A stretch of 64,000 nucleotides of DNA, taken from positions 169,001 to 233,000 of the forward strand of contig CAWEMP010000018.1 of assembly GCA_963810205.1 (NCBI GenBank), given 5' to 3'. The notes under the pieces were generated by a model. It saw only the letters and a program-made list of their open reading frames with translations. It searched no databases and was not told where the DNA came from. Origin of the DNA: an uncultured Acidobacteriota bacterium. Lineage in GTDB: Bacteria; Acidobacteriota; Thermoanaerobaculia; UBA5066; Gp7-AA6. The stretch's first letter is position 1; every line of letters starts with the position of its first letter. Of this stretch, positions 1,557 to 38,467 are shown piece after piece. Position numbers and translations under genes: made by a program.

Positions 1557-3104
1557 ATGAAGAGAATGCTCGCGACCTGGCTCCTCGTCTGCGGTCTCGG
1601 CGCGACCGCGCTGCGCCCAGGAGAAGCCCGCGGAGAAGCGCCGCTCCGGACGCCGCGAAGAAGGAGCCGCCGAAGGCCGAGCAGTCGGTCACGCAGCACA
1701 CCGCCGTGATCGGCGGGGCGCCCGTCGCCTTCACGGCGACCGCCGGCACGCTCGTCGTGCAGAACGCCAAGGACGAGCCGTGGGCGAGCATGGGCTACGT
1801 CGCGTACGTCCGGAAGGACGCGGGCCCGGCCGCGCGGCGCCCGATCGCGTTCTGCTACAACGGCGGCCCCGGGCTCCTCGTCGATCTGGCTGCACATGGG
1901 CGCGCTCGGTCCGCGGCGCGTCGTCGTCGCGGACGCCGCCCCGACGCCGCCGCCGCCGTACCAGGTCGTCGACAACGCCTACAGCCTGCTCGACAAGGTC
2001 GACATCGTCCTGATCGATCCGGTCGGCACGGGAGTCAGCAAGCCGCGTCGGCGACTTCAAGAACCAGGACTTCTGGGGCGTCGATCCCGACATCGAGTCG
2101 ATCTCGCGGTTCATCAAGCAGTACGTCTCGGACAACGGCCGCTGGAACTCGCCGAAGTACCTGATCGGCGAGAGCTACGGCACGACGCGCTCGCCCGGCA
2201 TCGTCGACTGGCTGCAGAGCAAGGGCGGCATGTCGTTCAACGGCGTCGTGCTCATCTCGCTCGCGACGGACCTCGGCGCGATCTTCGCCTTGCCGGGCAA
2301 CGACCAGCCGTATCCGCTGATTCTCCCGAGCTACGCGGCGACGGCCTGGTACCACAAGGCGCTGCCGAATCCGCCGAAGGACCTCGAGCCCTGGCTGACG
2401 GAGGTCCGTCGCTTCGCCGCGGGCGACTACGCGGCGGCGCTCGCGGAGGGCGACCGGCTCTCCGACGAGCGTCGCGCCGCGGTCGTCGCAGAAGCTGCAC
2501 GAGTACACCGGGCTCTCGGAGGAGTACCTGCGCCTGGCCGACCTGCGCGTGTCGCGAGAGCGAGTTCACGCAGGAGCTCTTCCGGCAGAAGGGAATCACG
2601 ATCGGCCGGCTCGACTCGCGGTTCGTGGGCCCGACCTTCGACCCGCTCGCCAAGGAGACCGAGAACGACCCGCAGTCGAACTCGATCACCGGAGCGTACA
2701 CGGCCGCGTTTCTCGACTGGTACCACGAGGGATTGAAGTTCGGCGAGGGCAAGTCCTACGTCGTCACCGCCGACGCCTGGCGCACGTGGGACTTCAAGCA
2801 CGCGGTCCCCGGGCTGCCCTTCCCCGCGCCGACGCTGACCAACACGAACATCGACCTCGCGCGCGCGATGGCCTTCAATCCGAGCCTGCGCGTCCTGGTG
2901 CTGAACGGACAGTTCGACCTCGCGACGCCGTTCTTCGCGAGCGAGTACATGATGGCGCACGTCTCCCCGCAGAAGGACGTCAAGGCCCGCATCGAGATGA
3001 AGTACTACCCGGCGGGCCACATGATGTACGTCAACGAGGGCGCGCTCAAGGCGATGAAGGCCGACATGGCCGACTTCGTTTCGCGCACCGTCGCTTCGCG
3101 CTGA
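1557..3104 (+). pseudogene. peptidase S10-like serine carboxypeptidase, about five frameshifts
   Basis: ATG 1557 follows GAGAGGA and opens a signal peptide MKRMLATWLLVCGLGA. The protein has to be pieced from all three frames (ORFs 1706.., 1896..3104, 2230..2736). The pieces give CYNGGPG, LIDPVGTGVS, IGESYGTTR (Ser box) and YYPAGHMMY (His box) in S10 order. Frame changes lie near 1630, 1885, 2045, 2495 and 2555. Confidence 0.7.
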
Positions 3105-3190
3105 CTCGGGTTCTGCGCCCTCCGGGCGCACCGGCTTGCGGCGTCGCGGACGGCGCTCGACCGCAAGCCTGTCCCCTCGCGGCGCCAGTG
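3087..3190 (+). repeat. truncated copy R0 (5' domain only) of the kinase-leader structured repeat
   Basis: It starts ACCGTCGCT like the other copies. It retains hairpin 1 (GCGCCC-TCC-GGGCGC), hairpin 2 (GGCTTGCGG...CCGCAAGCC) and TCGCGGCGC, then diverges. The invariant 3' domain is missing. Its first 18 nt supply the last codons and the stop of the S10 peptidase gene. Confidence 0.7.
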
Positions 3191-7249: not shown

Positions 7250-7748
7250 CTAGCTCCAGTCGACCCGAATCGCCGGCGGCTGCATGAGCGTCTGCATGAC
7301 GACGCAGTACTGCTCGGTCTTCTCGGCGAGCGCGCGGAGCTGATCCGGGGTCGCGTCGGGCGCATCGACGGCGACCTTCAGGCGAATCGTCTCGAAGCCG
7401 ACGGGGACCTCCTTCGAGATGCCGAGCGTGCCCGCGAGGTCGAGGTCCCCTTCGACGGACACCGCGATCGACTTCGTCGGGATCCCCATCGCCGACGCGA
7501 CCATCTGGCAGGTCACCTGCGCGCACGCGGCGAGCGCGCCGAGGAGCAGATCGCCCGAGCAGGCGCCCGTTCCCGCGCCGCCCGACGCCCGCGTGGGCCT
7601 GGGCCTCGTAGACCGCGCGGCCGATGTCGACCGAGCAGGCGATCGGCGCGCCGGTCTCGGCGCCCCTCGCAGTGAGCGTGATGCGAGAGGTCGAAGGCTC
7701 CGCGCGGTACTTGTCCTTGAGCGGCTTCTGGAGCGAGCGCAGGTCCAT
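7250..7748 (-). pseudogene. OsmC/Ohr-family peroxiredoxin-like protein, one frameshift near 7580
   Basis: The N-terminus MDLRSLQKPLKDKYRAEPSTSRITLTARGAETG..AHAGVG starts at ATG 7748. The C-terminus GAGTGACSGDLLLGALAACAQVTCQMVA...QYCVVMQTL is in the frame of ORF 7250..7873. The conserved Cys pair context is typical of OsmC. Confidence 0.7.
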
Positions 7749-9489: not shown

Positions 9490-9566
9490 CGACCGTTGAA
9501 TCTACCAGATGCGCCCGTGCCCGGCCGCCTGGCGAAGCTCTATCTTGTATGCTCCCCGCAACTTGG

Positions 9567-9727
9567 ACCGTCGCTTGCGCTTACTCGGGACCTGCGCCCT
9601 TCGGGCGCACCGGCGAGCGACTCGCCCAAAGGGGCTCGATCGCTCGCCTGGTCCCTCGCGGCGCGCTCGCTCCCGCGGCGCGAACCTCCTCCCTCCCTTC
9701 GGTCGGGAGACTATTCGCGCCGCGAAC
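9567..9727 (+). repeat. kinase-leader structured repeat, copy R1
   Basis: Runs from ACCGTCGCT to TTCGCGCCGCGAAC. It has P1 GGGACC/GGTCCC, hairpin 1 GCGCCC-TTC-GGGCGC and hairpin 2 GGCGAGCGA/TCGCTCGCC. The 3' domain is CGCGGCGCGAA-(29 nt with CTCCC/GGGAG hairpin)-TTCGCGCCGCG. It lies 29 nt upstream of the K2 start. Confidence 0.85.
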
Positions 9728-9756
9728 GAAGTAGAGAGTGCCTCGAGGGGGAAGAC

Positions 9757-12447
9757 GTGAGTCTCGCCACCGGCACGCGCCTCGGCCCCTACGAGATCCT
9801 CGCGCCGATCGGCGCGGGAGGGATGGGGGAGGTCTACAGGGCGCGGGACGGGAAGCTGCAGCGGGACGTCGCGATCAAGGTGCTGCCGGAGCTCTTCGCC
9901 GCGGATGCCGAGCGGCTGGCGCGGTTTCAGCGCGAAGCGCAGGTGCTGGCGGCGCTGAACCATCCGCACATCGCGGCGATCTACGGCCTGGAGGAGTCCG
10001 GCGCGACGGCGGCGCTGGTGCTGGAACTCGTGCCGGGGGAGACGCTCGCGGAAAGGATCGCGTCGGGGCCGATCCCGGTGGAGGAGGCCATGGCCGTCGC
10101 GCATCAGATCTCCGACGCCCTCGAGGCCGCGCACGAGCGGGGCATCGTGCACCGCGACCTGAAGCCCGCCAACGTCAAGATCACGCCCGACGGGAAGGTC
10201 AAGGTACTGGACTTCGGGCTGGCCAAGGCGCTCTCGACCGACGGATCGTCGCCGGACGTGACGTCGTCGCCGACGATCACGGCCGCCGCGACGCAAGCGG
10301 GCGTCGTGATCGGAACCGCGGCGTACATGTCGCCCGAGCAGGCGCGGGGCAAGCCCGTCGACAAGCGCACCGACATCTGGGCTTTTGGAACAGTGCTCTA
10401 CGAGATGCTGACGGGCAGGCGCTGCTTCGAGGGCGACACGGTGTCGGACGTGCTTGCCTCCGTCCTGCGCCAGGACCCGGACTGGTCGGCTCTCCCCGCC
10501 GAGACACCGGCGAACGTGCGCCGGCTCCTTCGTCGGTGCCTGGAGCGGGACCGCAAGAACAGGCTGCGCGACATCGGGGACGCGTGGCTCGAGGGCCCCG
10601 CGGATGCACCGGCGGCAACGGGAGTCCGGCGCGGATTTCCGATCGCCTGGGCCGCGGCCGTGCTCCTCGCCCTGGCGGCTGGATTCGCCGTGGCCCGCTG
10701 GACCGGCCGGGCACCCGCCGCGACGACCCCCATCGCGACCCATTCCGTGGTCCCGCTGCCTCCCGGCACGCGGCTTTCCGGTTGGGCATCTCCGGTGCTC
10801 GCCCTCTCCCGCGACGGCCGCTCGCTGGCCTTCGTGGCCGAGAAGGATGGCGAGCCGCAGAGGCTCTGGGTGCACCGGCTCGACCTCGACGAGAGCCGCG
10901 TCGTCCCCGACAGCGATGCGGCCGAAGGGCCGTTTTTCTCTCCCGACGGTCAGTGGGTCGCCTTTGCCGTGAACGTTTCGCAAGTGGCGTCCGGCGGGAG
11001 GGCAGAGCTGAAGGGAGAGCTCAGGAAGTACTCGCTCTCCACGGGCCTGACGCAGACGGTCGCTCCCATTCCCGACTATCACGGAGGAAGCTGGGCCGAG
11101 GACGGCTCGATGCTCGTGGCGGCGTCGACGACCCAGGGTCTGTGGCGAATTGCTGCCGGCGGCGGCAAGCCCGACGTGTCGGCGGAGAGGGTGATCTGGC
11201 AGGGCCGCGAGGACCGGCTCCCATTGTCCTGGCCGCAGGCTCTCGCGGGAGGCGCGGCGCTCGTCACCTTTGACGGCCTGAGCCGTTGGGGAGGCGCCGC
11301 GATTCTCGACTTCCCGACGCGGACCCTGGAGAGGCTCGCCGGAGACACGTCGTTTTCGCGATACGCCGCGGACGGCCGCCTGCTGATGCTCCGGCGAGAT
11401 CGCTCGGTGCTCGCCGCTCCCTTCGACGCGCGGACGCACCGGATCACGGGGCCCGCGGTCGCCGTGCTGCGGGAGGTCGCCACGGGCGGGAACGGCGCCG
11501 GAGCACTCGCCGTCTCGGAGAACGGGACCCTGGTCTATGCGAGCGGTTACCTTCTTGGAAGCGGTCTGGAGCAGAGGCGGCTGGTCCGCCTGAGCGAGAG
11601 GGGGGACGTCGAGATCCTCCCGTTCGAGCCGGACGCCTTCGTCCGCCTTCCGAACGTGTCGCCGGACGGCCGGACTCTCCTGGCGTTGACTGCGGACGGG
11701 TCGGTGTTCCTCTACGATCTAGTGCGCGGCGTTCGCAGTCGGCTTCCGATCGGGAATCTGCAGGGCCACGGGTTCGTGGGGATCTGGTCGCCCGACGGCG
11801 AGAGCGTCACGTTCACCGTCTCGTCCGAGGGCGGGCAGGGGTGGAGCATCGTCCGACAAAAGGCGGATGGCAGCGGTCCGCCCGAAGAGATCGTCCCGAG
11901 CGGCGAGGAGAAAAACGCGCTCGCCTGGACGAGCGATGGCGGTTCCCTGATTTTCACTCAGTGGGGAGAGGAGCCGGCGCTCTGGATTGCGCCGGTCGCC
12001 GAGAAGGCCGCGCCGCGCAAGCTCGTCGAAGGCTTCGTCGGAACCGCGAGCATCTCTCCCGACGGGCACTGGTTGGCGTACGACCGTCAAGGGATCGAGG
12101 GCTGGGAGACGGTCGTCGAGAGGCTCCCCGCGCCGGGCCGCAAGGTGGCGATCGCCGCGGGAGGTAGGGCGCCTCGCTGGTCCCCCGACGGGCGCGCGAT
12201 CTACTTCCGGAGGGGCGACAGCCTTTTTCGCGTAAGGGTCACGCCGGGAGAGAAGCTCGAGCCGGACACCCCCGTGGAGCTTTTCCGGCTGGCGAACTGG
12301 CAGGGCTATGCCGTGGCTCCAGATGGGAAGAGCTTCTTTGGCATCGTGCAGGCCGCCGATTCCGGCATTGTGCGGGAGCTGCACCTGGTCACGAACTGGT
12401 TCTCGGAGCTCGAGCGCCTCGCGCCGGCGGCCGGGGCAAAGCCGTGA
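9757..12447 (+). CDS. Ser/Thr protein kinase with PD40/TolB-like beta-propeller ectodomain (K2, subfamily II)
   Basis: GTG 9757 follows GAGGGGGAAG. The start is fixed by similarity of [27 protein letters not shown] to paralog N-termini, because the track ORF 8122..12447 is merely open upstream. Motifs are VAIKVL, HRDLKPAN, DFGLAK and AYMSPEQ. A TM segment IAWAAAVLLALAAGFAVA is followed by many SPDG repeats. Intact. Confidence 0.9.
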   Translation: MSLATGTRLGPYEILAPIGAGGMGEVYRARDGKLQRDVAIKVLPELFAADAERLARFQREAQVLAALNHPHIAAIYGLEESGATAALVLELVPGETLAERIASGPIPVEEAMAVAHQISDALEAAHERGIVHRDLKPANVKITPDGKVKVLDFGLAKALSTDGSSPDVTSSPTITAAATQAGVVIGTAAYMSPEQARGKPVDKRTDIWAFGTVLYEMLTGRRCFEGDTVSDVLASVLRQDPDWSALPAETPANVRRLLRRCLERDRKNRLRDIGDAWLEGPADAPAATGVRRGFPIAWAAAVLLALAAGFAVARWTGRAPAATTPIATHSVVPLPPGTRLSGWASPVLALSRDGRSLAFVAEKDGEPQRLWVHRLDLDESRVVPDSDAAEGPFFSPDGQWVAFAVNVSQVASGGRAELKGELRKYSLSTGLTQTVAPIPDYHGGSWAEDGSMLVAASTTQGLWRIAAGGGKPDVSAERVIWQGREDRLPLSWPQALAGGAALVTFDGLSRWGGAAILDFPTRTLERLAGDTSFSRYAADGRLLMLRRDRSVLAAPFDARTHRITGPAVAVLREVATGGNGAGALAVSENGTLVYASGYLLGSGLEQRRLVRLSERGDVEILPFEPDAFVRLPNVSPDGRTLLALTADGSVFLYDLVRGVRSRLPIGNLQGHGFVGIWSPDGESVTFTVSSEGGQGWSIVRQKADGSGPPEEIVPSGEEKNALAWTSDGGSLIFTQWGEEPALWIAPVAEKAAPRKLVEGFVGTASISPDGHWLAYDRQGIEGWETVVERLPAPGRKVAIAAGGRAPRWSPDGRAIYFRRGDSLFRVRVTPGEKLEPDTPVELFRLANWQGYAVAPDGKSFFGIVQAADSGIVRELHLVTNWFSELERLAPAAGAKP

Positions 12448-12454
12448 GGAGTTG

Positions 12455-13792
12455 ATGAAGGAGATGGCGCGGACGCGTTTGGCCGCCGTGCTGCTGAGCG
12501 CCTGGGCCGGGATCGCATTGGCCGCCGACCCGGCCGTCACGATCCTCAAGGCCGCCCGACTGATCGATGGGCGCGGCGGCCGGCCGATCGCGCCCGCGAT
12601 GGTGCGGGTCGAAGGCGAGCGAATCGCCGAGGTCGGGCCCGCCCTCGCGATTCCGGCCGGCGCCCGCGTCATCGACCTCGGCGACGCGACGCTCCTGCCC
12701 GGCCTCATCGACCTCCACACGCACCTGACCGACAAGTTCGGCGTCCACTGGGAACAGGCCCTGACGACGACGACCCCCGGCGAGGCCGCGCTGTGGGGCG
12801 CGAACAACGCGCGCGACACCCTCATGGCCGGCTTCACCACGTGCCGCGACATGGGGCCGACCTGGCCCTACGTGGACGTCGCCCTGCGCAACGCGATCGA
12901 CGCGGGCGCGGTGCCCGGGCCGCGCCTCTTCGTGGCCGGCAACTACGTCTCCTCGACCGGCGGGGCCGGCGACGCGCGGCAGTTCTCGATCTACGTGGAC
13001 GTCCCGATCGTCCGGAACCTGGCCGACGGGCCGGAGGAAGTGACGAAGGCCGTGCGCACGAACTTCAAGAACGGCGCGGACTTCATCAAGATCCTCGCAA
13101 CCGGCGCGATCCTCTCGAAGGGCATCGCGCCGGACGCGCAGCAGTACTCGGACCTCGAGATCGCGGCGGCGGTCGAGGAGGCGAACCGCTGGGGACGGCA
13201 GGTCGCGGCCCACGCGCACGGGGCGAAGGGCATCAAGAGCGCGATCCGCGCAGGCGTGCGCACGATCGACCACGGCTCGTATCTCGACGACGAGGCGGTC
13301 GCGCTGCTGAAGGCGGGCGCGCGGAGGACGTTCTACGTTCCGACGCTGTACACGAGCGAGGTGATTCTCGAGAACGAGGGCGCGACGATACCGGAATCCG
13401 AGGTCCAGAGAATGCGCCAGATCCGCGACATCAAGGACGCGGCCTTCCGGCGGGCACTGGCCGCGGGCCTGCCGATCGGATTCGCCACCGACTCGGGCGT
13501 GATCCCTCACGGCAGGAACGCCCGAGAGTTCGCTCTCCGCACCGGTCTCGGCGAGACGCCACTCTCGGCGATCGTCTCCGCGACGAGCCTGAACGCGGAG
13601 ATCATGGGCTGGTCGGACCGCGTGGGGACCGTCGAGAAGGGGAAGCTCGCAGACCTCGTTGCGGTGTCCGGCAATCCCCTCTCGGACGTCACCGAGCTCG
13701 AGCGCGTCCGGTTCGTGATGAAAGGCGGCGTCGTCTGGCGGGACGATCTGTCAGGCGCGTGCCCGGATGCCGGCAGGGGAGCCGGACCTTGA
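12455..13792 (+). CDS. secreted metal-dependent amidohydrolase (PF01979-type)
   Basis: ATG 12455 follows GAGGAG and opens the signal peptide MKEMARTRLAAVLLSAWAGIALA. LPGLIDLHTHL (HxH), AAHAHGAKGI, TIDHGSYL and FATDSGV follow the order of the amidohydrolase metal ligands. Intact. Confidence 0.8.
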   Translation: MKEMARTRLAAVLLSAWAGIALAADPAVTILKAARLIDGRGGRPIAPAMVRVEGERIAEVGPALAIPAGARVIDLGDATLLPGLIDLHTHLTDKFGVHWEQALTTTTPGEAALWGANNARDTLMAGFTTCRDMGPTWPYVDVALRNAIDAGAVPGPRLFVAGNYVSSTGGAGDARQFSIYVDVPIVRNLADGPEEVTKAVRTNFKNGADFIKILATGAILSKGIAPDAQQYSDLEIAAAVEEANRWGRQVAAHAHGAKGIKSAIRAGVRTIDHGSYLDDEAVALLKAGARRTFYVPTLYTSEVILENEGATIPESEVQRMRQIRDIKDAAFRRALAAGLPIGFATDSGVIPHGRNAREFALRTGLGETPLSAIVSATSLNAEIMGWSDRVGTVEKGKLADLVAVSGNPLSDVTELERVRFVMKGGVVWRDDLSGACPDAGRGAGP

Positions 13793-13861
13793 GCCTCTCC
13801 GCCGGTACGAAGCTCGGTCCCTACGAGATCCTGGCTCCGATCGGCGCGGGCGGGATGGGGG
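13789..13861 (+). pseudogene. orphan 5' stub of a kinase gene (first 24 codons, [24 protein letters not shown])
   Basis: The TTG at 13789 overlaps the amidohydrolase stop (CTTGA). The coding sequence stops being kinase-like exactly where repeat R2 begins. Nucleotides 13804-13862 are identical to 14061-14119 of K3. Confidence 0.7.
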
Positions 13862-14015
13862 ACCGTCGCTTCGGTGACTCGGAGGTCTGGCTTCGCCACC
13901 GGCGCGCGGCTCGCAGACGGCGCTCGACCGCGCGCCTGACCTCCTCGCGGCGGTCCGCTCCCGCGGCGCGAACCTCCTCCCTCCCTTCGGTCGGGAGACT
14001 ATTCGCGCCGCGAAC
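13862..14015 (+). repeat. kinase-leader structured repeat, copy R2
   Basis: P1 GGAGGTC/GACCTCC, hairpin 1 GGC-TTC-GCC, hairpin 2 GGCGCGCGG/CCGCGCGCC, and the invariant 3' domain. It lies 30 nt upstream of the K3 ATG. Confidence 0.85.
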
Positions 14016-14045
14016 AACTGGGAGATTGTCTTTGAGAGGTCTCCG

Positions 14046-16706
14046 ATGAGTCTGGCGGCGGGTACGAAGCTCGGTCCCTACGAGATCCTGGCTCCGATCG
14101 GCGCGGGCGGGATGGGGGAGGTGTACCGGGCGAAGGACACGCGGCTGGAGCGGACGGTGGCGATCAAAGTGCTGCCGCAACATCTTTCTTCATCCCCCGA
14201 GGTCCGCCAGCGGTTCGAGCGCGAGGCGAAGACGATCTCGCAGCTCTCGCATCCCCACATCTGCGCGCTCTACGACGTCGGTCGCGAAGGGGAGATCGAA
14301 TACCTGGTGATGGAGCTTCTCGAGGGCGAGACGCTCTCGGATCGCCTCGCGAAGGGGCCGCTGCCGCTCGAGCAGACGCTGCGCTCCGGAGTGGAGATCG
14401 CGGACGCCCTGGACAAGGCGCACCGTCAGGGAATCGTGCACCGGGACCTGAAGCCCGGCAACGTCATGCTGACGCGGTCGGGCGTGAAGCTCCTGGACTT
14501 CGGACTGGCCAAGGCGATGGCGCCGTCTACGCAGCAGTCGAGCCTGACGGCCCTGCCCACGCAGCAGGGCCTGACGCAGGAAGGCACCATCCTCGGGACG
14601 TTCCAGTACATGGCGCCCGAGCAGCTCGAGGGCAGGGACGCGGACGCGCGGACGGACATCTTCGCGTTCGGAGCGGTCCTGTACGAGATGGTCACGGGGC
14701 AGAAGGCGTTCTCGGGTTCGAGCCAGGCCTCGCTCATCTCGTCGATCCTCCGCGACGAGCCGAAGCCCATCTCGCAGGTCCACCCGACCTCTCCCCAGGC
14801 GCTCGATCGAATCGTGCGGACGTGCCTCGCCAAGGATCCCGAGGAGCGGTGGCAGTCGGCGAGCGACCTGAAGCGGGAGCTCCGGTGGATCGGCGAGAGC
14901 TCGCAGTCCGGCGCGGCGGCCGCGACGGGGGTCGTCCCCCGTTCGCGGGCGTCGCGCGCCTGGCTCCCGTGGGGGCTCGCGCTGGCCTCCCTCGCAGCCG
15001 CCCTCGCCCTGGCCTTCGTTCTCCACCGCCGAAGCGCCGTTCGCCCGTCCGCGGTCCATTCCTTCCTTCTGCCGCCGGAGAAGACCGCTTTCGAGCTGAC
15101 CGGCGACGAGTCCGCGCCACCCGCGCTCTCGCCCGACGGCGCGCGGGTCGTCTTCGGCGCGTCGGGAAAGCTCTGGGTCCAGTCGGTGTCGACCGGCGTG
15201 ACGTCGGCGCTGCCGTTGACCGAGCACGCGCTGTTTCCGTTCTGGTCGCCCGACAGCCGGTCGATCGGCTTCTTCGCCGGCGGGAAACTGAAGACGATCG
15301 AAGCCGCCGGCGGCCCGGTGCAGGTCCTGTGCGATGCGCCGACGCCCCGCGGGGGGAGCTGGGGCCGGGCGGGCGTCATCGTTTTCGCTCCGGACTTCCG
15401 GGGCGGGCTTTCGCGCATTCCGGCGGGTGGCGGCGCTCCCGCGGCCGTGACGACGCTCGATGCCGCGCGGCACACGACGCATCGCTGGCCCTGGTTCCTT
15501 CCGGACGGCAAGCGGTTCCTCTTCCTCGCGGCCAACCACGCCAACTCGCGGTCGCAGGACTCGGGGATTTACGTCGGATCGCTCGACGCGGGGCCGGCGC
15601 GCCGCCTGATGGCGTCCTACGGGAGTGTTCAAACGGTGCCGGGCTGGGTGCTGTCGGTTCGCGACAACAGCCTCATCACGACGCCCTTCGACGAGGACCG
15701 CGCCGCCGTCTCGCCGCCGGGCGTCAGCGTCGCCAACGACGTGAACTTCGACTCCGGCGTGTGGCGGGGCGTCTTCACGGTTTCCCGGACGGGACTCCTC
15801 GCGTACCAGGTAGCGCGCGAGGGAACGGGAGGGCAGCTCACGTGGCTCGACATGTCAGGCCATGCGGCCGGAACGATCGGAGAGCGCAACGAGTCGTATG
15901 CCCTGCGGTTGTCGCCCGACGGCCGCCGGGCGTCCGTGATCCAGGGCGATCCGAACAACGACATCTGGATATACGAGCTCGAGCGCGGTGTTCGGACCCG
16001 TCTCACCACCGACGCGGGTGTCCTCCCTTCTCCGATCTGGTCTCCCGACGGTTCCGAGATCCTCTTCGTCAGCGGTGTGGCGATCGAGATGAAGCCCGAG
16101 TACGTCGTGGCGAGGCTTCCGTCGTTCGGAGCCGGCGAAAAGAAGGTCGTCCTGCGCTCGCCCGCCCGCATGGAAACGACGGACTGGTCGCGGGACGGAA
16201 AGTACCTGTTGTTCGACCGCGGCAACATCGGCGCCACCGACATCTGGGCGGTGGCGCTCGCTCAGCCGGACAAGCCATTTCCCCTCGTCCAGACTCCGTT
16301 CCTCGACACCACCGGAATGTTTTCTCCCGACGGGCGATGGGTCGCGTACGTATCGATGCAGACCGGCTCCTGGGAGGTTTTCGTCACGGCGTTTCCCGCG
16401 GGCGGCGCGCCGTACCAGGTCTCCGGCTCGGGCGGCCGCCTGCCGCAGTGGGGCCCGGACGGCAAGACCCTCTACTTCATCGCGGAAAACGAGCTCATGG
16501 CCGCGGAGGTCGACGGATCCGGACCCCGGTTCGAGATTCGAGCGCCGAAGCCCGTGTTCCCCCTTCCCCTTTTCATCGGCCCCCGGTTGGCGAGCGCGTA
16601 CGCCATCACGCCCGACGGAAAACGGCTGCTCGCCAACGCTGCCGGCGACGTGTCCGCGCCGCGCGTCGCGCTCGTCGCGAACTGGACCTCGGATCTGGCC
16701 AGGTGA
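14046..16706 (+). CDS. Ser/Thr protein kinase with PD40/TolB-like beta-propeller ectodomain (K3, subfamily I)
   Basis: Intact 886-aa ORF with [29 protein letters not shown] and QYMAPEQ. The TM segment is AWLPWGLALASLAAALALAFVL. It has repeated SPDG/PD40 motifs and the C-terminus NWTSDLAR. Confidence 0.92.
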   Translation: MSLAAGTKLGPYEILAPIGAGGMGEVYRAKDTRLERTVAIKVLPQHLSSSPEVRQRFEREAKTISQLSHPHICALYDVGREGEIEYLVMELLEGETLSDRLAKGPLPLEQTLRSGVEIADALDKAHRQGIVHRDLKPGNVMLTRSGVKLLDFGLAKAMAPSTQQSSLTALPTQQGLTQEGTILGTFQYMAPEQLEGRDADARTDIFAFGAVLYEMVTGQKAFSGSSQASLISSILRDEPKPISQVHPTSPQALDRIVRTCLAKDPEERWQSASDLKRELRWIGESSQSGAAAATGVVPRSRASRAWLPWGLALASLAAALALAFVLHRRSAVRPSAVHSFLLPPEKTAFELTGDESAPPALSPDGARVVFGASGKLWVQSVSTGVTSALPLTEHALFPFWSPDSRSIGFFAGGKLKTIEAAGGPVQVLCDAPTPRGGSWGRAGVIVFAPDFRGGLSRIPAGGGAPAAVTTLDAARHTTHRWPWFLPDGKRFLFLAANHANSRSQDSGIYVGSLDAGPARRLMASYGSVQTVPGWVLSVRDNSLITTPFDEDRAAVSPPGVSVANDVNFDSGVWRGVFTVSRTGLLAYQVAREGTGGQLTWLDMSGHAAGTIGERNESYALRLSPDGRRASVIQGDPNNDIWIYELERGVRTRLTTDAGVLPSPIWSPDGSEILFVSGVAIEMKPEYVVARLPSFGAGEKKVVLRSPARMETTDWSRDGKYLLFDRGNIGATDIWAVALAQPDKPFPLVQTPFLDTTGMFSPDGRWVAYVSMQTGSWEVFVTAFPAGGAPYQVSGSGGRLPQWGPDGKTLYFIAENELMAAEVDGSGPRFEIRAPKPVFPLPLFIGPRLASAYAITPDGKRLLANAAGDVSAPRVALVANWTSDLAR

Positions 16707-21947: not shown

Positions 21948-24596
21948 TTGAGTCTTTCGGCCGGGACACGCCTCGGGCCCTACGAGATCGCTGCGCCGAT
22001 CGGCGCCGGCGGCATGGGCGAGGTCTACCGGGCGAAGGACACGCGTCTGGACCGTCAGGTCGCGGTGAAGGTGCTGTCCTCGCACCTCTCGGCGAGCGAG
22101 GAGGTCCGGCAGCGGTTCGAGCGCGAAGCCAAGACGATCTCGCAGTTCTCGCACCCGCATATCTGCTCGCTCTACGACGTCGGGCGGGAGGGCGAGACCG
22201 ACTACCTCGTGATGGAGCTCCTCGAGGGCGAGAGCCTCGCGGACCGGTTGGGCAAGGGCGCGCTTCCCACGGAGCAGGTCCTGCGCTTCGGGATCCAGAT
22301 CGCGGACGCGCTCGACAAGGCGCACCGGCAGGGGATCGTGCACCGGGACCTCAAGCCCGGCAACGTCATGCTCACGAAGACGGGCGTGAAGCTGCTCGAC
22401 TTCGGCCTCGCCAAGCCCTTGACCGCAGCCGGCGCTCGGCCCGTCTCCGGTGCCTCGGTCCTCGCGACGGAAGCGCAGGTCAGCCAGCCGCTGACGGAGC
22501 GGGGAACCGTGCTCGGCACGTTCCAGTACATGGCGCCCGAGCAGCTCGAGGGCGGAGAGGCGGACGGCCGCTCCGACATCTTCGCGTTCGGCGCCGTGCT
22601 CTACGAGATGGCGACGGGCAAGAAGGCCTTCACAGGCAAGAGCCAGGCGTCCTTGATCGGCTCGATCCTGCGGGACGATCCGCCCTCGATCACCGAAGCG
22701 GCGCCGATGATCCCGCCGGCCCTGAATCGCGTCGTCAAGACCTGTCTCGCCAAGGACCCCGAGGACCGCTTCCAGACCGCGCACGACGCCAAGCTCCAGC
22801 TCGAGTGGATCGCCGAGGGCGGCTCGCAGGTTGGCCTGCCGGCACCCGTCGCCGCGCGGCGCAAGAGCCGCGAGAAGCTCGCCTGGGCGATCGCGGCCGT
22901 CGCCATCGTCGCAGCGGCCCTCGCCGCCTACGGTTACCTGCGCCGCGCGCCAAAGCCGCTCCGGCTGACGCGCTTCGAGATCTCGACTCCGGAAGAGATC
23001 GTGGCGCTGGACGCGCCGCGCGTCTCGCCGGACGGGCGCTACGTGGCGTTCAACGCGACGGATTCCTCCGGAAAGACGCGGATCTGGCTGCGTGCTCTGA
23101 ATGCCCTTGCGCCGCAGCCGCTCCCCGGCACCGAGGGGACGACCCGGCCCTTCTGGTCCCCGGATTCCCGGTTTCTCGGCTTCTTCGCCGAAGGCAAGCT
23201 GAAGAAGATCGACGTGACCGGAGGGCCGCCGCAAAACATCTGCGACGCGCCGACCGGCTCCGACGGTTCGTGGAGCCCGGAGGGCGTGATCCTCTACGAC
23301 GGCCGCGGGACGGATCCGATCAACCGCGTTTCGGCCGCGGGAGGCGTTCCCGTCGCGGTGGTCAAGCCCGATCCGGCGAAAAAGATCAGCCAGGTCGGCT
23401 GGCCGGAGTTCCTGCCCGACGGCAAGCACTACTTCTTCATGGTGATCGCGACCCGGGCCGAGGACAGCGCCTACCGCATCGGATCCCTCGATTCGAACGA
23501 GTCGAAGCCGTTCGCTCCCGCCCAGACCCTGCTCACGTACGCTCCCCCCGGCTATCTCCTCTTCGTCCGGGATCGGACGCTCGTCGCCCAGCCCTTCGAC
23601 GCAAAGGCCCAGAAGACGACGGGCGAGCCCGTGCCGCTGGCCGAGAAGATCGGTGTCGACAGCGTCGGGCTCGCTCGCTTCTCGGTCTCGCGCGAGGGCA
23701 CGCTCGCCTATCGGACCGGGGAGTCCGGGACCCGCCTGCTCTGGGTGGACCGCAACGGCAAGGAGCTCGAGGCGGCGGGCGAAGCGGGCGACTCGCGAGA
23801 GCCGGCGCTGTCGCCGCGGGGCGACCGCCTCGCTTTCGACCTGACCGACGCCCGGGCCAACAACGCCGACGTCTGGGTGCGCGATCTCGCGCGCGGCGTG
23901 AACTCGCGGCTGACGTTCGGCCCGGTCGACGAGTTCGCCCCGACCTGGTCGCCCGACGGAAGCCGGATCGCCTACGCCGTGGACAGCAAGGGAATCTTCG
24001 AGAAGGCCGGCGACGGAACCGGCGAAGAGAAGGAGCTGCTGAAGGCGGAGGAGCTGATGTTCCCGACCGACTGGTCCCGGGACGGCCGGTACATCGCTTT
24101 CACGCGGCAGGGCAAAGACACGGGCCTGGACATCTGGGTGATGCCGACCTCCGGCGACGGGAAGCCGGTACCGATTCTCAAGACGCCCTTCAACGAAAAC
24201 GGCACCATCTTCTCTCCCGACGGCCGGTTCATCGTGTACGTGTCGACCGAATCCGGCCGCAACGAGATCTACGCGCGCAGCTTCCCCGGCCAGGGCGGCA
24301 AGTGGCAGGTCTCGGCCGGCGGAGGCACGGACCCGCATTTCAGCGCCGACGGCCGGGAGATCTTCTACCGCGCGCCGGACCAGAAGGTCATGGCCGTGGA
24401 CGTGAAGGCGGGCGCAGGGTTCGAGACCGGCGTTCCCAAGGCGCTGTTCCTCGGACGATTCCAGCCGGCGACGGCCCGCAACCGGTTCGTGCCCGCGCTC
24501 GATGGCCAGCGTTTCCTGATCGTCGCCCCGTTGGGGCGCGACGCCATGGCGCCGACGACGGTGGTCCTCAACTGGTTCGCCGGACTCGGGAAGTGA
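21948..24596 (+). CDS. Ser/Thr protein kinase with PD40/TolB-like beta-propeller ectodomain (K5, subfamily I)
   Basis: TTG start and an intact 882 aa. It has the full kinase motif set, the TM segment LAWAIAAVAIVAAALAAYGYL, PD40 repeats and the C-terminus NWFAGLGK. It is closely related along its whole length to K6. Confidence 0.92.
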   Translation: MSLSAGTRLGPYEIAAPIGAGGMGEVYRAKDTRLDRQVAVKVLSSHLSASEEVRQRFEREAKTISQFSHPHICSLYDVGREGETDYLVMELLEGESLADRLGKGALPTEQVLRFGIQIADALDKAHRQGIVHRDLKPGNVMLTKTGVKLLDFGLAKPLTAAGARPVSGASVLATEAQVSQPLTERGTVLGTFQYMAPEQLEGGEADGRSDIFAFGAVLYEMATGKKAFTGKSQASLIGSILRDDPPSITEAAPMIPPALNRVVKTCLAKDPEDRFQTAHDAKLQLEWIAEGGSQVGLPAPVAARRKSREKLAWAIAAVAIVAAALAAYGYLRRAPKPLRLTRFEISTPEEIVALDAPRVSPDGRYVAFNATDSSGKTRIWLRALNALAPQPLPGTEGTTRPFWSPDSRFLGFFAEGKLKKIDVTGGPPQNICDAPTGSDGSWSPEGVILYDGRGTDPINRVSAAGGVPVAVVKPDPAKKISQVGWPEFLPDGKHYFFMVIATRAEDSAYRIGSLDSNESKPFAPAQTLLTYAPPGYLLFVRDRTLVAQPFDAKAQKTTGEPVPLAEKIGVDSVGLARFSVSREGTLAYRTGESGTRLLWVDRNGKELEAAGEAGDSREPALSPRGDRLAFDLTDARANNADVWVRDLARGVNSRLTFGPVDEFAPTWSPDGSRIAYAVDSKGIFEKAGDGTGEEKELLKAEELMFPTDWSRDGRYIAFTRQGKDTGLDIWVMPTSGDGKPVPILKTPFNENGTIFSPDGRFIVYVSTESGRNEIYARSFPGQGGKWQVSAGGGTDPHFSADGREIFYRAPDQKVMAVDVKAGAGFETGVPKALFLGRFQPATARNRFVPALDGQRFLIVAPLGRDAMAPTTVVLNWFAGLGK

Positions 24597-24759
24597 GCCG
24601 TCGCTCGCGCTTACTCGGGGCCTGCGCCCTTCGGGCGCTCCGGCCTGCGGCTCGCGCGGATGCGCGCTCGACCGCAAGCCTGGCCCCTCGCGGCGCGCTC
24701 GCTCCCGCGGCGCGAACCTCCTCCCTCCCTTCGGTCGGGAGACAATCCGCGCCGCGAAC
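24597..24759 (+). repeat. kinase-leader structured repeat, copy R3
   Basis: It begins immediately after the K5 TGA. P1 is GGGGCC/GGCCCC, hairpin 1 is GCGCCC-TTC-GGGCGC and hairpin 2 is GGCCTGCGG/CCGCAAGCC (one C-A mismatch). The 3' domain has one change (TCCGCGCCGCG). It lies 31 nt upstream of the K6 ATG. Confidence 0.85.
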
Positions 24760-24790
24760 GCAACGGAGAGCGCTGTTGAAAGGTCTTGAA

Positions 24791-27452: not shown

Positions 27453-29781
27453 GTGATCGCAACCGCGGAGCGCCGCTGGGGCCTCGCGGCCGTGACGGCG
27501 GCGCTCGGATGCCTCGCGCTCCTGGCCGTGCGTTCGTCCGCGGCTCCCGAACCGCGGGTGGGCGCGCTCCTGGTGGTCGCGGCCGCCCTGGAGCTGTTCC
27601 ACGGCTTCCGGCGCTCGAGCGAGGCGGGGCAGCGCGAGGCCTGGACGGGCGGCCTGATCACGCTCCTCATGGGACTCCTGCTCCTGAATGCTCCGGACCT
27701 GGCCGCGGGGGCGCTGGTCGTCTTCTTCGGCGGCGGGTTCGCGCTCGACGGGATTCGGCACGCGAAACACGCGCTCGGAGCGCGAAAGGCCGGCCGCCCG
27801 TTCGCCGCGCATGCCTGGGCGGCCCTCGGCAACTTCGCACTCGCGGCGCTGCTCGCCGTGCTCGGCGGATGGGCGCCGGAGTGGATGGTTCCGATCGCCG
27901 GCGCGCTTCGCATCTTCGGGACGGCCTGGGGCATCGCGATGGCTCCGGTCTTCGATGCGGCCGACACCGGAGAGACGGTGGTTCGCGACCTCGGCCTCGA
28001 GGATCGGCCCGAAATCGCCGCGCTCGCGGAGCGGCTCGAGGCCGAGGAGGTCCACCGCGCGCCGATCGACCGGCACTGGATCTTCGTGCTGATCCTCACG
28101 CTCTTCGCGATCCACCTCGGACGGATGGGATTCGACCGCACGGCCCTCGGCGTCCTGGCGCCGAGTGTCGCCGTGATCGGCGATCTGTTCGTCGGGCTCG
28201 TCGTGGGATTCCTCATCGTGTTGCCGGGGCGCCTGGCCTTGCTCAGGCTGACCGGCCCGCTCGCTCGCCGAGCCGGCGACTGGCGCGCGGCGGCGAAGCC
28301 CTCCTGGCGGACGCGTCTGGTCGATCGCTGGCTGACCAGGCGGCTTCGCGCCAACATTCGAATGCGCGACGCGCGCTACTCGTTCGCCGCCGCGGCCTCG
28401 CGCAGTCTGCGGGTCGGCCTGCCGGTCGCGGCGGTCTTCGCGGCCACGATCCCGGTCTGGGGCATGAGCTGGTATTTCGACACGGAGAACTGGGCGTCCG
28501 GCGTCTGGGACTCGTGGGCCGAAGAGCGCACCGATGTCTGGCGCGCGGCGATGACCTCCGCGACGGCCGAAGGCGAGCGCGCCGCCGGGCGGCCGGCGAA
28601 CTTCGCCGTGACGCCGGCCGGGCACCGAGAACGACTTCGCGTTCGTGGTCGTCGGCGACACCGGAGAGGGCGACGCCTCGCAGCACGTGCTCCGCCGCTC
28701 GCTGCTCCGCGCGGCCGCCCAGCCCGAGGTGAAGTTCGTCATCGTCTCTTCCGACGTCGTCTACCCCTCAGGCGAGATGAAGGACTACGAGCGCAAGTTC
28801 TGGCTGCCCTTCATGGGGGTCGAGAAACCGGTCTACGCGATCCCGGGCAACCACGACTGGTACGACGCGCTCGAGGGCTTTGCCGCGACCTTCTTCACGC
28901 CCGAGGCCGCGCGGCGGGCGCTGCGGGCGCGCGCCGAGGCCGATCACCAGCTGACGACGACCACCGACGCCGAGGTCGACAGGCTCGTCGCCGAGGCGGC
29001 GCGGCTGCGCGCGGAGTACGGCGTGCCGACCGGACTCCAGCAGGCGCCCTATTTCCAGATCCAGACTCCGGACTTCGCCCTGATCGCGGTCGACACTCGG
29101 CGTTCGCCGGGCGGTCGACGCGGCGCAGCTCGCGTGGCTCGAATCGGCGCTCGACGCGTCGCGCGGCAAGTTCACGATGGCGCTCCTCGGTCATCCGTTC
29201 TACGCCGTCGGCGCGTACCAGGGCGCCGCCAACGGAGGATTTCGCGGCGCTCCACCGCCTGCTGCGCGAGCGCGGCGTGCCTCTGGTCATGGCCGGCGAC
29301 ACGCACGATCTCGAGTACTACCGGGAGCCGGGCGCTCGCGGGTCGCGCGCCGATGCACCACGTGGTGAACGGCGGAGGCGGCGCCTATCTGAGCCTCGGC
29401 ACGGCGCTCGCGAAGCCCGAGAGCATGCCGACGCCGGCCTGGGCGTTCTATCCCTCGACCGCGCCGATCGTCGAAAAGGTCGAGGCCAACAATCCGAGCT
29501 GGAAGCGCCCGGTCTGGTTCTGGGCGAGCCGGCTCGGCGGATGGCCGTGGTCGTCCGAGTGGCTCTCGGCCGCGTTCGACTACAACGTCGCGCCGTTCTT
29601 CCAGAGCTTCGTCGAGGTCCGTGTCGAGCCCTCGGCCGGCCGCGTCCGACTCCTGCCGTGGGGCGTTCACGGGCGCCTGCGCTGGTCCGACCTCCAGACT
29701 TCCGACGGGTTGCGTCCCGAGGGGGTCGCGGCGGAGGCGCCGGTCGAGTGGTCCCTGCCGCTCGGAGCGCCGGCGAGCTGA
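27453..29781 (+). pseudogene. multi-pass membrane domain fused to calcineurin-like metallophosphoesterase, about four frameshifts
   Basis: GTG 27453 opens about 390 aa of hydrophobic helices. FAFVVVGDTGEGD, SSDVVYPSG, IPGNHDWY, LLGHPFY and MAGDTHDLEYY follow in metallophosphoesterase motif order. They are split over three frames (ORFs 27453.., 28645..29781, 29177..29368). Frame changes lie near 28630, 29100, 29245 and 29340. Confidence 0.65.
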
Positions 29782-29825
29782 GGGCGCCGCTTCACGCGTC
29801 GCTATACACTCCGACCTGAACTCCG

Positions 29826-29904
29826 ATGACGCTCGCCGCCGGCTCGAGGCTCGGTCCCTACGAGATCCTCGCGCCGATCGGAGCGGGCGGGATGGGGGAG
29901 GTTT
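29826..29904 (+). pseudogene. orphan 5' stub of a kinase gene ([26 protein letters not shown]..)
   Basis: ATG 29826 is followed by 26 kinase-like codons that end exactly at the ACCGTCGCT start of repeat R4. The frame then runs into the repeat and terminates there. Confidence 0.65.
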
Positions 29905-30064
29905 ACCGTCGCTCTCGCTCGCTCGCGGACCTGGCCCTTCGGCACCGGCGTTCGGCTCGTCCGGATGCGGACTCGCCGTCCGCCTGATCCGCTCGCGTCG
30001 CTCCCGCTCCCGCGGCGCGAACCTCCTCCCTCCCTCCGGTCGGGAGACTATTCGCGCCGCGGAC
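29905..30064 (+). repeat. kinase-leader structured repeat, copy R4 (most diverged)
   Basis: P1 GGACC/GATCC (one mismatch), hairpin 1 GCC-CTTC-GGC, and hairpin 2 GGCGTTCGG/CCGTCCGCC (two mismatches) with inner GTCCG-GATG-CGGAC. The 3' domain has a loop variant (TCCGGTC) and ends GGAC. It lies 39 nt upstream of the K7 GTG. Confidence 0.8.
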
Positions 30065-30103
30065 GTCAGGGAGGGTGCCGCTGAGGGCAGGGGAGAAGGC
30101 GCC

Positions 30104-32745
30104 GTGACGCTCGCCGCCGGCACGAAGCTGGGCCCGTACGAGATCCTCGTCGCCGCTCGGCGCGGGCGGGATGGGCGAGGTGTACCGGGCGCGGGACGCG
30201 CAAGCTCAACCGCGACGTCGCGATCAAGGTGCTGCCGGCGGCGTTCGCGGAGGACGCGGAGCGGCTGGCGCGGTTCCAGCGGGAGGCGCAGGTCGCTGGC
30301 GTCGCTGAATCACCCGCACATCGCCGCGATCTACGGACTCGGAGAACGTCGGGCAGCGTCGAGGCGCTCGTGCTGGAGCTCGTCGAGGGCGAGACGCTCG
30401 CGGAGCGGATCGCGAGCGGGCCGATTCCTGTCGACGAGGCCCTGGCGATCGCGCGCCAGATCGCCGACGCGCTCGAGGCGGCGCACGAGAAGGGGATCGT
30501 GCACCGGGACCTGAAGCCGGCCAACGTCAAGGTCACGCCGGAGGGCAAGGTCAAGGTCCTCGACTTCGGCCTGGCGAAGGCGTTGACGGGCGACGCGTCG
30601 TCGCCGGACCAGACGCACTCGCCGACGCTGACGGCCGCGGCGACGCAGGCCGGGGTCGTCATCGGGACGGCGGCGTACATGTCGCCGGAGCAGGCGCGAG
30701 GGCAAGGCCGGTCGACAAGCGCGCCGACATCTGGGCCTTCGGCGCGGTGCTCTACGAGATGCTCTCGGGCAGCAAGGCGTTCGACGGCGAGACGGTCTCG
30801 GACACGCTGGCCGCGATGCTGCGCGCCGACTCGGACTGGTCGCGTCTCCCGCCGGAGCACGCCGCCCGCGGTCCGCGAGCGCTTCTGCGCCACTGCCTCG
30901 ACCGCGAGCGAAGTACCGGCTCGCGCGACATCGCCGACGCGCCGATCGCTTTCGGACGGCTCGCGGGAGCGTCGTTCCCGGCGCGCTCGCCGCCGCCCCG
31001 GGTCCGCCGAATTCCCGCCGGGCTCCTGTGGGGTATTGCGGGGCTTCTCGCCGGAGCGATCACGGCGCCTGCTCTCGAGCGGGCGTCTTTCCCGGCACGC
31101 CTCCCCGGGCCAGCCGGTTCGTTTCGAAGTCGCCGCGCCGCCGGACCACCGCGTCGTGGGGACCGTCGCGCTCGCGCGAGACGGCAGCCATCGTCGCCTT
31201 CACGGCACGAGCGCCGGACGGCGTCGACGCGCTCTGGATTCGTGCGCTCGAGATCAAGCGGCGAGGTTGCAGGGAACCGAAGGCGCGCACCTTCCCTTCT
31301 GGTCGCCCGACGGCCGTTCCGTGGGGTATGTCGCCAGCGGAGCTCTCAAAGGCATCGCGACTCGGGTGGCCGCGCCTCGGAGCGACGCTGGCCTCTGTGA
31401 CGACGACGTTCGCGGTGCGTGCTGGGACGAAGCCGACCGGTCGTCTTCGCGCCGGCATTACCGGGCCTCATGCAGGTTTCGGCCTCGGGAGGGATGGTCA
31501 AGCCGTGCTCACGCTCTGGACAAGCCGGAGCGGGACTTCCATCCGCGGCCCGCTTCCCGGACGGGCGGCTTTCCTCTACTTCGCCACGGGTCCACCGGAC
31601 AGGGCCCGGCGAGATCATCGTCGGGGAGGTCGGGTCGGGCAAGGTCAAGCACGTCGTGCAGTCGAGCTCGATCGCGGCTACGCGAACCCGGGATACCTCT
31701 TATTCGTCCGCGGCCAGCTCCCTTCGGCGCAGCGCGTCCGACGCCGACGGCTCGGGCGTTCCCGTTCACGCGACGCCTCTCGGCGACGATCGTCGCCGAA
31801 TTCGTCGACGAGGGGCCTGCGGGCCATCTCCGCTTCTCTCGAGGGAACGATCTGCTGGCGCGCTCCAGCGAGCTCGACGAGCCAGCCGGTGGTGCTCGAT
31901 CGCCAGGGACGCGAGATCGGAAGGCTCGCGGAGGCCGGGACCTGGTACTACCCTCATCTCTCTCCGGACGGTCAGCGGCTGGCCGCCGCGGAGTGGCCGA
32001 CACCACCGTCGGGACATCTGGACGATCGACATCGCTCGGAACGTGGCGACGCGCATGACTCTGGACCCGGGGGACGACCAGAGCCCGATCTGGTCGCCCG
32101 AGGGTACGCGGATCGTCTTCAACTCGGACCGCAAGGGCGCCTCGGGCAACCTTTACGAAATGCGGGCCGACAGCCGGGCAGCGAAGAGCTCGTTCTCGCG
32201 ACCGAAGACGCGAAGACCGCCGAATCGTGGGCGCCGGACGGCCGCTCGCTGATCTTCCAGCTCAGTACGCCTCGAGACCGGGCGGACCTCTGGCTGCTTC
32301 CTCTCGAGGGAGATCGAGAAGCCAGCGCCGTTTCTGGCGACAACCTTCTCCGAGCGGAATGCCCGCTTCTCTCCCGACGGCCGGTGGGTGGCATACACAT
32401 CCGATGTCTCGGGCGCCTTCGAGGTCTACGTCCGGCCGTTCCCGAATCCGGCGGAACGTGGAGAGTCTCGAACCGCGGCGACCAGACTCCTGCCTGGAGA
32501 GGCGACGGCCGCGAGATCTACTTCTCGCTCCCGATGACATGCTGATGGCCGCGGCTGTAAAGGGCACCGCGCCCTTTCAGACCGAAGCCCCGGCGCCTCT
32601 CTTCAAGCTCGCGGTCTCCGATGGCGGTCGATCCTCAGTACGACGTATTCCCGGACGGCAAGCGCTTTCTCGTCAACGCAGCGAGATCTCGTCGGAGGAG
32701 GAGCCGACCAACGTGCTCGGTGCAACTGGGCCGCGGCCCTCAAGA
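30104..32745 (+). pseudogene. Ser/Thr protein kinase with PD40/TolB-like beta-propeller ectodomain (K7, subfamily II), many frameshifts; 3' end approximate
   Basis: GTG 30104 ([15 protein letters not shown]..). Pieces in all three frames give [84 protein letters not shown] and a NWAAALKK-type C-terminus near 32740. No clean stop lies before K8. Confidence 0.8.
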
Positions 32746-35465: not shown

Positions 35466-35538
35466 ATGACGCTCGCGGCCGGAACGAAGCTCGGCCCCTA
35501 CGAGATCCTGTCGCCGCTGGGCGCGGGCGGGATGGGGG
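35466..35538 (+). pseudogene. orphan 5' stub of a kinase gene ([24 protein letters not shown])
   Basis: ATG 35466 lies 14 nt after the K8 stop. Its 24 kinase codons end at GGGATGGGGG/ACCGTCGCT, the same junction as at 13861/13862. It differs from the K9 5' end at about nine positions and resembles K11/K12-type 5' ends ([11 protein letters not shown]). Confidence 0.7.
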
Positions 35539-35692: not shown

Positions 35693-35746
35693 GATAGAGA
35701 GAGTGCCATGAAATGAAATCGCCGGGCTTGTTGGAGGTCGGCTGAG

Positions 35747-38434: not shown

Positions 38435-38467
38435 CGCTCGCGGCTCGAATCTCGCCGGGAGGTTGCC

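Follow-up and report, generated by a model that had tools for sequence, protein, structure and literature searches.

In the sap system of Campylobacter fetus and the vsa system of Mycoplasma pulmonis a conserved 5' segment of the paralogs is the crossover site at which gene bodies swap onto one expression site; these systems are programmed, reversible and work within a single strain. Among the dispersed repeats, Neisseria REP2 and Borrelia IR-A/IR-B are 120–180 nt long, have no terminal inverted repeats and contain internal stem-loops (Delihas 2011, PMC3184786; Morelle 2003); they lie directly 5' of genes, with a ribosome binding site (RBS) and a start codon fused to the open reading frame (ORF), and their supposed origin is a 5' untranslated region that was duplicated (PMC3184786). 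Mycobacterial interspersed repetitive units (MIRU) are intercistronic in operons, and their small ORFs overlap the upstream stop and the downstream start, keeping translational coupling (Supply 1997, in PMC3184786), and Rickettsia palindromic elements (RPE) are structured repeats tolerated in reading frames, inside mature protein sequence (PMC3184786). GTAG- and CGTC-tagged repetitive extragenic palindromes (REPs) are G+C-rich, 20–40 bp long and form a single hairpin with an 8–9 bp stem that begins with A/T pairs, a 4–5 nt loop and a CCA tail (Di Nocera 2013, PMC3733652); those with the CGTC tag are mainly found 3' of coding regions and co-transcribed, some lie inside genes, and no transposase is known for them (PMC3733652). 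Here we analyse 64,000 nt of contig CAWEMP010000018.1 of an uncultured Acidobacteriota bacterium of the class Thermoanaerobaculia (in the following, the window is this whole stretch), which has 70% G+C and carries ~13 tandem Ser/Thr kinase paralogs. Behind an amidohydrolase gene of the window a 74-nt stub of a kinase 5' end is fused to the first base of a structured repeat, R, which is followed by a complete kinase, K3. We consider it somewhat better than an even bet (probability roughly 0.55) that this layout arose by a duplication anchored at R's first base, followed by homologous exchange within kinase 5' ends.

The junction between amidohydrolase and K3

The amidohydrolase gene (12308–13792, + strand; taken from the ORF list, homologues carrying Amidohydro_1/3 domains) ends with the stop TGA at 13790–13792, and a TTG at 13789 overlaps this stop (CTTGA). 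The stub occupies 13789–13862 of the + strand: 13789–13860 encode 24 codons of a kinase N-terminus that reaches as far as the glycine loop, and sequence comparison shows kinase-like sequence until 13862. Without any spacer the repeat copy R2 (13863–14019, + strand; nhmmer E = 2e-33, supported by its fold and by covariation on 80 copies) then begins at 13862/13863 with (A)CCGTCGCT. A leader (14020–14045, + strand) with a Shine-Dalgarno-like GAGAGG at 14034–14039 precedes the ATG of K3 (14046–16706, + strand), a complete kinase of 886 aa with Pkinase and PD40 beta-propeller domains (ORF list, Pfam). An earlier note on this DNA had reported the stub, the overlap of its TTG with the amidohydrolase stop, the spacerless joint and the K3 start at 14046, all of which are seen in the sequence; its count of 24 codons is right as well, and the end given for them was one base off, the correct position being 13860. 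A scan of 13600–14200 found no sigma-70-like site, the scan having been run without a promoter consensus of this phylum.

The 3' part of the stub (13804–13862) and a segment of K3 (14061–14119, + strand) are identical in direct comparison at 59/59 positions, for which 0 matches are expected from shuffles, and in the preceding 15 nt, the first five codons, only 9/15 positions match; the identity and the differing codons are as the note had given them. When the corresponding 59 nt of the window's kinase 5' ends and stubs are compared pairwise (78 pairs), the median is 49/59 and the runner-up reaches 54/59; thus the identity is exceptional for the kinase family, and it is sharply bounded. Bases 1–15 of the stub match the coupled kinase start of a related locus (L116) at 14/15 positions, and the stub would accordingly be a hybrid, ancestral and coupled over bases 1–15 and K3-like over bases 16–74.

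Empty sites had been proposed as something to look for in relatives, and three were found (L112, ..CAATGACC..; L116, ..CATTGAGCCTCGCCGCC..; L241, ..CCTTGACCCTCGCC..). At these a full kinase, with no R in between, is directly coupled to the amidohydrolase gene and starts on its stop as ATGA or TTGA. Since these sites exist and their alignments to the window pass through the stub and end exactly at 13862, the stub is the original start coupled to the upstream gene, as had been supposed. The coupled bodies differ from one relative to the next: the first is K6-like (85% over the whole gene of 2.6 kb, with downstream genes as at K6, 91%), the second K7/K2-like and the third K10-like (91%), and a K3-like body is found in 0 of the 3. 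Therefore the kinase 5' end behind the amidohydrolase gene is a recurrent exchange point, and what had been taken for the rewiring of one gene looks like an exchange of paralogs.

Repeated units of R, leader and kinase 5' end were found elsewhere. A protein search with the ORF that runs through stub and R as query returned similar ORFs in other assemblies, with junctions between GMG and DRR (74 nt), EVY and RR (80 nt), and GPY and DRR (38 nt). In L240, R, leader and the first 80 nt of a kinase are joined to R, leader and the kinase itself; the two units are near-identical, with agreement between stub and kinase at 79/80 positions. L237 has a 74-nt stub joined to a partly deleted R with leader and a second 74-nt stub, followed by R, leader and kinase; L239 has an R remnant, leader and 38-nt stub in front of R, leader and kinase; L031 has an 80-nt stub joined to R, leader and a 17-nt stub, again followed by R, leader and kinase. 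In L042 a stub is identical to its own kinase at 73/74 positions. The left edge of the unit is always R's first base, and the right edge lies 4–80 nt into the kinase. Tandem R copies always take in the leader and the gene 5' end, and otherwise R occurs as single ~160-nt units.

We propose a history in two steps. In the first, the segment from R's first base through the leader to the first ~74 nt of K3 would have been duplicated in tandem, leaving a copy of the kinase 5' end joined to R, leader and K3; an anchored tandem duplication accounts both for the junction at R's first base and for the 59-nt identity. In the second, homologous exchange in the opening ~15 nt of the kinase 5' end, within the most conserved stretch of the family, would have joined the amidohydrolase-coupled start to the upstream 5' copy, and the coupled kinase body would have been removed or displaced. 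The duplication step is directly seen in other contigs, and at the 13789 locus we infer both steps. Junction microhomology is only 1–5 nt (e.g. TACCG), and because of this simple slippage is insufficient to explain a left edge that is always R's first base; one possibility is that anchoring comes about via strand cleavage or joining at the CGTC-tagged end of R. A simple tandem duplication at the amidohydrolase locus was rejected, as there is no R and leader 5' of the stub. The stub is best regarded as a by-product of R's anchored duplications and of paralog recombination rather than as the work of a dedicated machinery for replacing 5' ends.

Several points weigh against this reading. The window holds no precursor in which R, leader and stub are joined to R, leader and K3; recent gene conversion between two direct repeats, at a distance of 257 nt, would account for the 59/59 identity just as well; the short microhomology named above is a further point; and since the relatives are 81–83% identical at the amidohydrolase, the order and direction of events are not polarisable, so that an empty site of the L112 type could itself have been produced by a deletion from the stub to a kinase 5' end farther downstream.

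The earlier note had suggested another route, in which a circular or tandem unit of repeat, leader, start and ~75 nt of kinase enters a coupled kinase by a single crossover, K3 being the gene that stood there from the beginning and has been rewired. Tandem units with just this make-up do occur (L240 and L237; with L239 and L031 they contain 38–80 nt of kinase), as do empty sites in relatives, and the hybrid stub, ancestral-like in bases 1–15 and K3-like in bases 16–74, fits as well. A foreign donor, however, would give a stub composed of target (1..x) and donor (x..74), and a gene composed of donor (1..x) and target (x..); the 59/59 identity is not predicted by a single crossover with a foreign circle, whereas a local tandem duplication predicts it. 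The absence of K3-like bodies from the coupled kinases of the three relatives and the different closest relatives of the two halves of R2 (see below) speak against this route too. The cassette idea is borne out in part, and as a whole we consider this route possible yet rather unlikely.

The repeat R and its boundaries

R measures ~160 nt (155–170 nt); its helices number three or four, and its apical core of 29 nt is invariant; in R2 the 5' module spans 13863–13961, the conserved 3' hairpin 13962–14012 and the core 13971–13999. Copies open with CGTC[G/A]C, and the CGTCGC 5' end is a sharp boundary throughout. The helices predicted from 80 copies are 97.7% paired (29–44% when the partners are slid), and compensatory changes occur in 17 of 32 pairs, one of which is CG in 28 copies, UA in 25, AU in 13 and GC in 6. 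The G-U/U-G and A-C/C-A cells of the pair table hold roughly equal counts and are uninformative as to strand assignment. Searching the whole window against Rfam at the gathering score gave 0 hits, R1 reaching chance level only (E = 4.6 and 6.9).

With the 29-nt apical core as query and one genome per species, R was found at no fewer than 111 loci. Among the matches listed, all belong to metagenome-assembled genomes (MAGs) of Thermoanaerobaculia/Acidobacteriota, and most copies lie away from kinases, beside unrelated genes and tRNA genes, which argues against the earlier description of the repeat as part of a kinase cassette. Of 91 non-kinase copies, 46 begin at most 4 nt (mostly 1 nt) past the stop of a co-oriented ORF, as compared to 1.9% of random positions; other copies begin 2–4 nt past a tRNA gene or directly after a T-run. 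The left flanks vary accordingly (TAA, TAG, TGA, GTA, CTA, GGA, tRNA trailers, T-runs). Since different MAGs have many R sites in common, R copies are old.

R has no terminal inverted repeats, CCGTCGC... and ...GCGCCGCGAAC not being inverted copies of each other, and no consistent target-site duplication was seen in ~120 left and right flanks inspected. A fixed duplication or a sharp right end was also rejected: in many copies TAA/TAG is found 8–26 nt past the hairpin, at variable distance. A metagenome scan with the junction pattern ATGGGNGAN{0,6}CCGTCGC returned 120 loci, 0 of which carry R, the pattern being too loose. No transposase family was found among the 10 window ORFs scanned against Pfam, the remaining window ORFs not having been scanned.

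The R copies also recombine. The 5' module of R2 is 93% identical to that of R5, and for tail and leader the identity is 78% with R3 and only 49% with R5; as the halves of this mosaic have different nearest copies, recombination takes place inside the invariant hairpin. Short partial 5' fragments of R adjoin full copies at base 1 (L025, L054, L095, L109, L061); automatic detection of partial beside full R gave 6 clear cases, and others were recognized by eye only.

A variant of the element and two other repeat families beside it were noted. Five loci (L017, L025, L042, L057, L066) have a nested structured insertion of ~55 nt (TATGACCGCCGTGCTTCGCACGGCG...GGTGGTCGGGTC) in the long 3' stem of R, five (L014, L054, L060, L096, L105) carry a GTAG-tagged REP-like hairpin (CCGTAGGGGCGGCCCTTGTGGCCGCCC) just 3' of it, and five (L033, L037, L063, L074, L075) a purine/pyrimidine palindrome (CCCTCTCCACCCGTGAGGGGGGAGAGGGTTGGGGTGAGGGGGG) likewise just 3' of R. 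In addition, L065 (R at ~130–290, - strand) shows an 80-nt kinase stub on a truncated R, followed by an inverted kinase fragment, the breakpoint lying in the R tail.

The exact left end raises the question whether R moves together with leader and start. Mobilization from a defined 5' end, by a nick or strand transfer of the HUH or REP-associated tyrosine transposase (RAYT) type at the CGTC-tagged terminus or by run-off at an RNA 5' end, with insertion into kinase 5' ends, would leave a long and variable target duplication, here of 59 nt. In line with this, R's left end is exact at every junction and the stub end varies from 4 to 80 nt; blocks of identity adjoin the junction (bases 16–74 in the window, 24–38 in L020 and 2–74 in L042); partial 5' fragments adjoin full copies at base 1, as described above; and the terminal CGTC resembles the tags of the REP superfamily, in which RAYT cleaves the GTAG tag (PMC3733652). 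On the other hand, neither a transposase nor a reverse transcriptase was identified among the 10 window ORFs scanned against Pfam, ordinary copies show neither a fixed target motif nor any short target duplication that is consistent, and the stubs at R4, R5, L002b and L087 differ from their own kinase along the whole length. Moreover, R sites are kept at orthologous positions across species, so that turnover of R is low. We therefore regard mobilization as doubtful.

R's left end is also a synteny breakpoint, as seen for R4 against L021 and for the first base of R6 against L241, a relative with 95–98% identity; at an orthologous GcpE-kinase locus three genomes have stubs of 5, 11 and 74 nt. 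Could the stub simply be what an illegitimate deletion of the kinase body 5' of R2 left behind, ending at the repeat boundary by chance? Kinase 5' remnants without R do exist (window 38431–38444; L042 ~7400–7435), and R normally lies directly past the stop of its upstream gene, which can be a kinase. However, at least 16 junction classes end at R's first base, all of them no more than 80 nt into a gene of 2.7 kb, and a deletion leaves the 59/59 identity with the next kinase unexplained, which makes this a very improbable origin. An assembly artefact of a long-read MAG deserves hardly any credence: several window kinases have single-base frameshifts typical of long-read errors, but the layout of stub, R and kinase recurs in independent short-read assemblies and in JGI/NCBI contigs (L002, L031, L238, L240).

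Going beyond the K3 locus, R might represent an undescribed structured intercistronic class in Acidobacteriota, with an enzymatically defined CGTC end from which it is copied together with leader and gene 5' end. Anchored duplications, and stranded starts kept as relay ORFs, would then follow, and together with 5'-end recombination this would re-partner kinases with expression contexts. We offer this broader picture as a tentative one, with the odds against it.

Reading frames through R and the kinase array

Stub, R2 and leader together form an ORF of 86 codons (13789–14049, + strand; translation and frame analysis), which shares its frame with the ORF 12793–14049. At one end it overlaps the amidohydrolase stop (TTGA), at the other the start of K3 (ATGA, 14046), and the TTG of the stub sets the only frame of R2 that stays open. 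The same overlap of the ORF with the kinase start is seen at R1 and in L238 and L239, and a frame-0 stop on the kinase start was scored in 7 of 19 R copies in kinase context. Leaders end with CTGAnnTGA, so that at the start codon each of the two non-kinase frames meets a stop. Stub starts lie in R's open frame at 18 of 24 junctions and in 11 of 16 junction classes (P = 0.004).

These features suggest, on the sequence level, that the ORF 13789–14049 acts as a translational relay that keeps K3 coupled to the amidohydrolase gene. Ribosomes coming from the amidohydrolase would cross R2 and stop at the ATGA on the K3 start, so that K3 would stay coupled despite the structured insertion, and the stub may owe its retention to the start codon that it provides in the open frame of R2. 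Two points count against such a role: the frame bias comes from manual scoring of an ascertained sample, and R, being G+C-rich, is open in its three frames in 49, 47 and 40 of 62 copies, often in all three. These numbers also rule out that R is open in one frame only throughout the family. A programmed bypass or splicing of R was considered and is unneeded, K3 having its own start. The stub had been described correctly as an old start stranded upstream of R, and yet it is not simply dead, given that it opens an ORF through R to the K3 ATG.

The window contains six full R copies (R1–R6), all on the + strand and each directly 5' of a kinase. A kinase start precedes each of them, of 5 nt (R1, R3, R6), 74 nt (R2, R5) or 80 nt (R4), and a leader with a Shine-Dalgarno-like motif and a kinase start follow all six. 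R1 (9568–9730) comes after the 5-nt start stub TTGGA, with a promoter-like TGTATGCT upstream (9563–9730 for stub and repeat, + strand; nhmmer, frame analysis); the ORF through R1 has a free-standing TTG start and ends with GTGA on the K2 start (9757). R3 (24598–24762; with stub 24593–24762, + strand) follows GTGAG, in which the K5 stop overlaps the old coupled start, and R3 and its leader are in frame with K6 (24791). The 80-nt kinase stub at 29826–29905 is fused to R4 (29905–30068; together 29826–30068, + strand), 5' of K7 (30104), and the 74-nt stub at 35466–35539 to R5 (35540–35697; together 35466–35697, + strand), 5' of K8 (35747), with the same junction as at R2. R6 (39538–39701; 39533–39701 with its ATGAA stub, + strand) lies 5' of K9 (39732). 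A lone 5' module of R (3088–3187, + strand; nhmmer) is not beside a kinase; it overlaps the stop of the ORF 1896–3104, which is without Pfam match, and the 3' hairpin of R is absent there.

Some traces in the window and its relatives are less complete. An orphan kinase start (ATGACGCTCGCGGC) at 38431–38444 lies just 5' of the AstE-like gene, with neither repeat nor kinase after it, and in L042 all that is left at the place orthologous to R1/K2 (~7400–7435) is a kinase 5' fragment (..CTCTCCCTACGAGATCCTCGCGG), to which an unrelated gene on the minus strand is joined. An R-tail-like remnant (53429–53468, in - strand sense) lies directly past the stop of the minus-strand gene for a major facilitator superfamily (MFS) transporter; L094 has a full R at its place, a presence/absence difference that leaves the tail. 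At 27453–29819 an ORF of 788 aa without Pfam match is absent from L241 (4351–4359), where the flanks are 95–98% identical; the breakpoints of this gap are the K6 stop and a point 3 nt before the ATG of the R4 stub. Single-base indels break the 5' frames of K7 (30140–30160), K9 (39759–39775) and K10 (42418–42437), which are either pseudogenes or long-read assembly errors.

In three loci without kinases (L113–L115) the genes for an amidohydrolase, an AstE/AspA-like protein, an MFS transporter and an aminotransferase are adjacent. Their counterparts in the window (12308, 38468, 53304 and 54891, the span reaching to 57050) are parted by kinase arrays of ~25 kb and ~14 kb; thus the arrays invaded the locus, at gene boundaries. 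L113–L115 were not counted as empty sites, being a non-kinase version of the locus and background only.

Taken together, this kinase family is reshuffled through breakpoints in the first ~80 nt of its genes and at a structured repeat's edge, and one fixed, translationally coupled start can drive different kinase bodies in different genomes. R itself is a widespread, strongly covarying element of ~160 nt from an uncultured class, absent from Rfam, whose position at gene and tRNA-gene ends is precise almost to the single base. The relay ORF, if true, would yield a simple rule by which operons put up with stable RNA structures inserted between genes that are coupled. Anchored duplication, if true, would point to a strand-cleaving activity that serves CGTC-tagged repeats, a group without a known transposase.

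Comparison with known systems

The mechanism had been put forward as one not yet described, and analogous repeats are in fact known, namely Neisseria REP2, Borrelia IR and MIRU (PMC3184786). R is like REP2 and IR, compared by description only, in having no terminal inverted repeats, in its internal stem-loops and in providing an RBS and a start for the downstream ORF. It differs from them in its strong covariation, and the scan around R2 gave no sigma-70-like counterpart to the promoter of the REP2/IR type; also, most R copies lie past unrelated genes or tRNA genes and not 5' of a gene family, and stranded old starts are not described for REP2. With MIRU, R2 shares an ORF that overlaps both the upstream stop (TTGA, 13789, of the amidohydrolase) and the downstream start (ATGA, 14046, of K3), whereas MIRU are 40–100 bp long and often form tandem arrays of variable repeat number, and R is a multi-helix element of ~160 nt with the double overlap in some copies only. 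R3 with its leader, running in frame from the old GTG to K6, resembles an RPE, although R is found at gene boundaries.

Like the CGTC-tagged REPs, R has an unpaired CGTC at one end and G+C-rich hairpins and is mainly found 3' of coding regions, but it is four to eight times longer, has several helices and lacks the 8–9 bp stem after the tag. It is distinguished from transposable elements of the miniature inverted-repeat type (MITEs) by being without terminal inverted repeats and without a target duplication of fixed length, and from the IS200/IS605-derived PATE and REPIN elements by having no fixed tetra- or pentanucleotide target 5' of its left end. Integron attC sites were rejected as a model, R being dispersed beside housekeeping and tRNA genes on many contigs, with no integrase-side array; an integrase was not searched for. 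The kinase locus recalls the sap and vsa systems in that, depending on the genome, a K6-, K7- or K10-like body is attached to the start coupled to the amidohydrolase, and departs from them in that only evolutionary differences between genomes are seen and that no invertase or unique promoter is involved. As R lacks features that define REPs, MITEs and IS200/605-type elements and has no Rfam family, it is best filed with the dispersed structured intergenic repeats.

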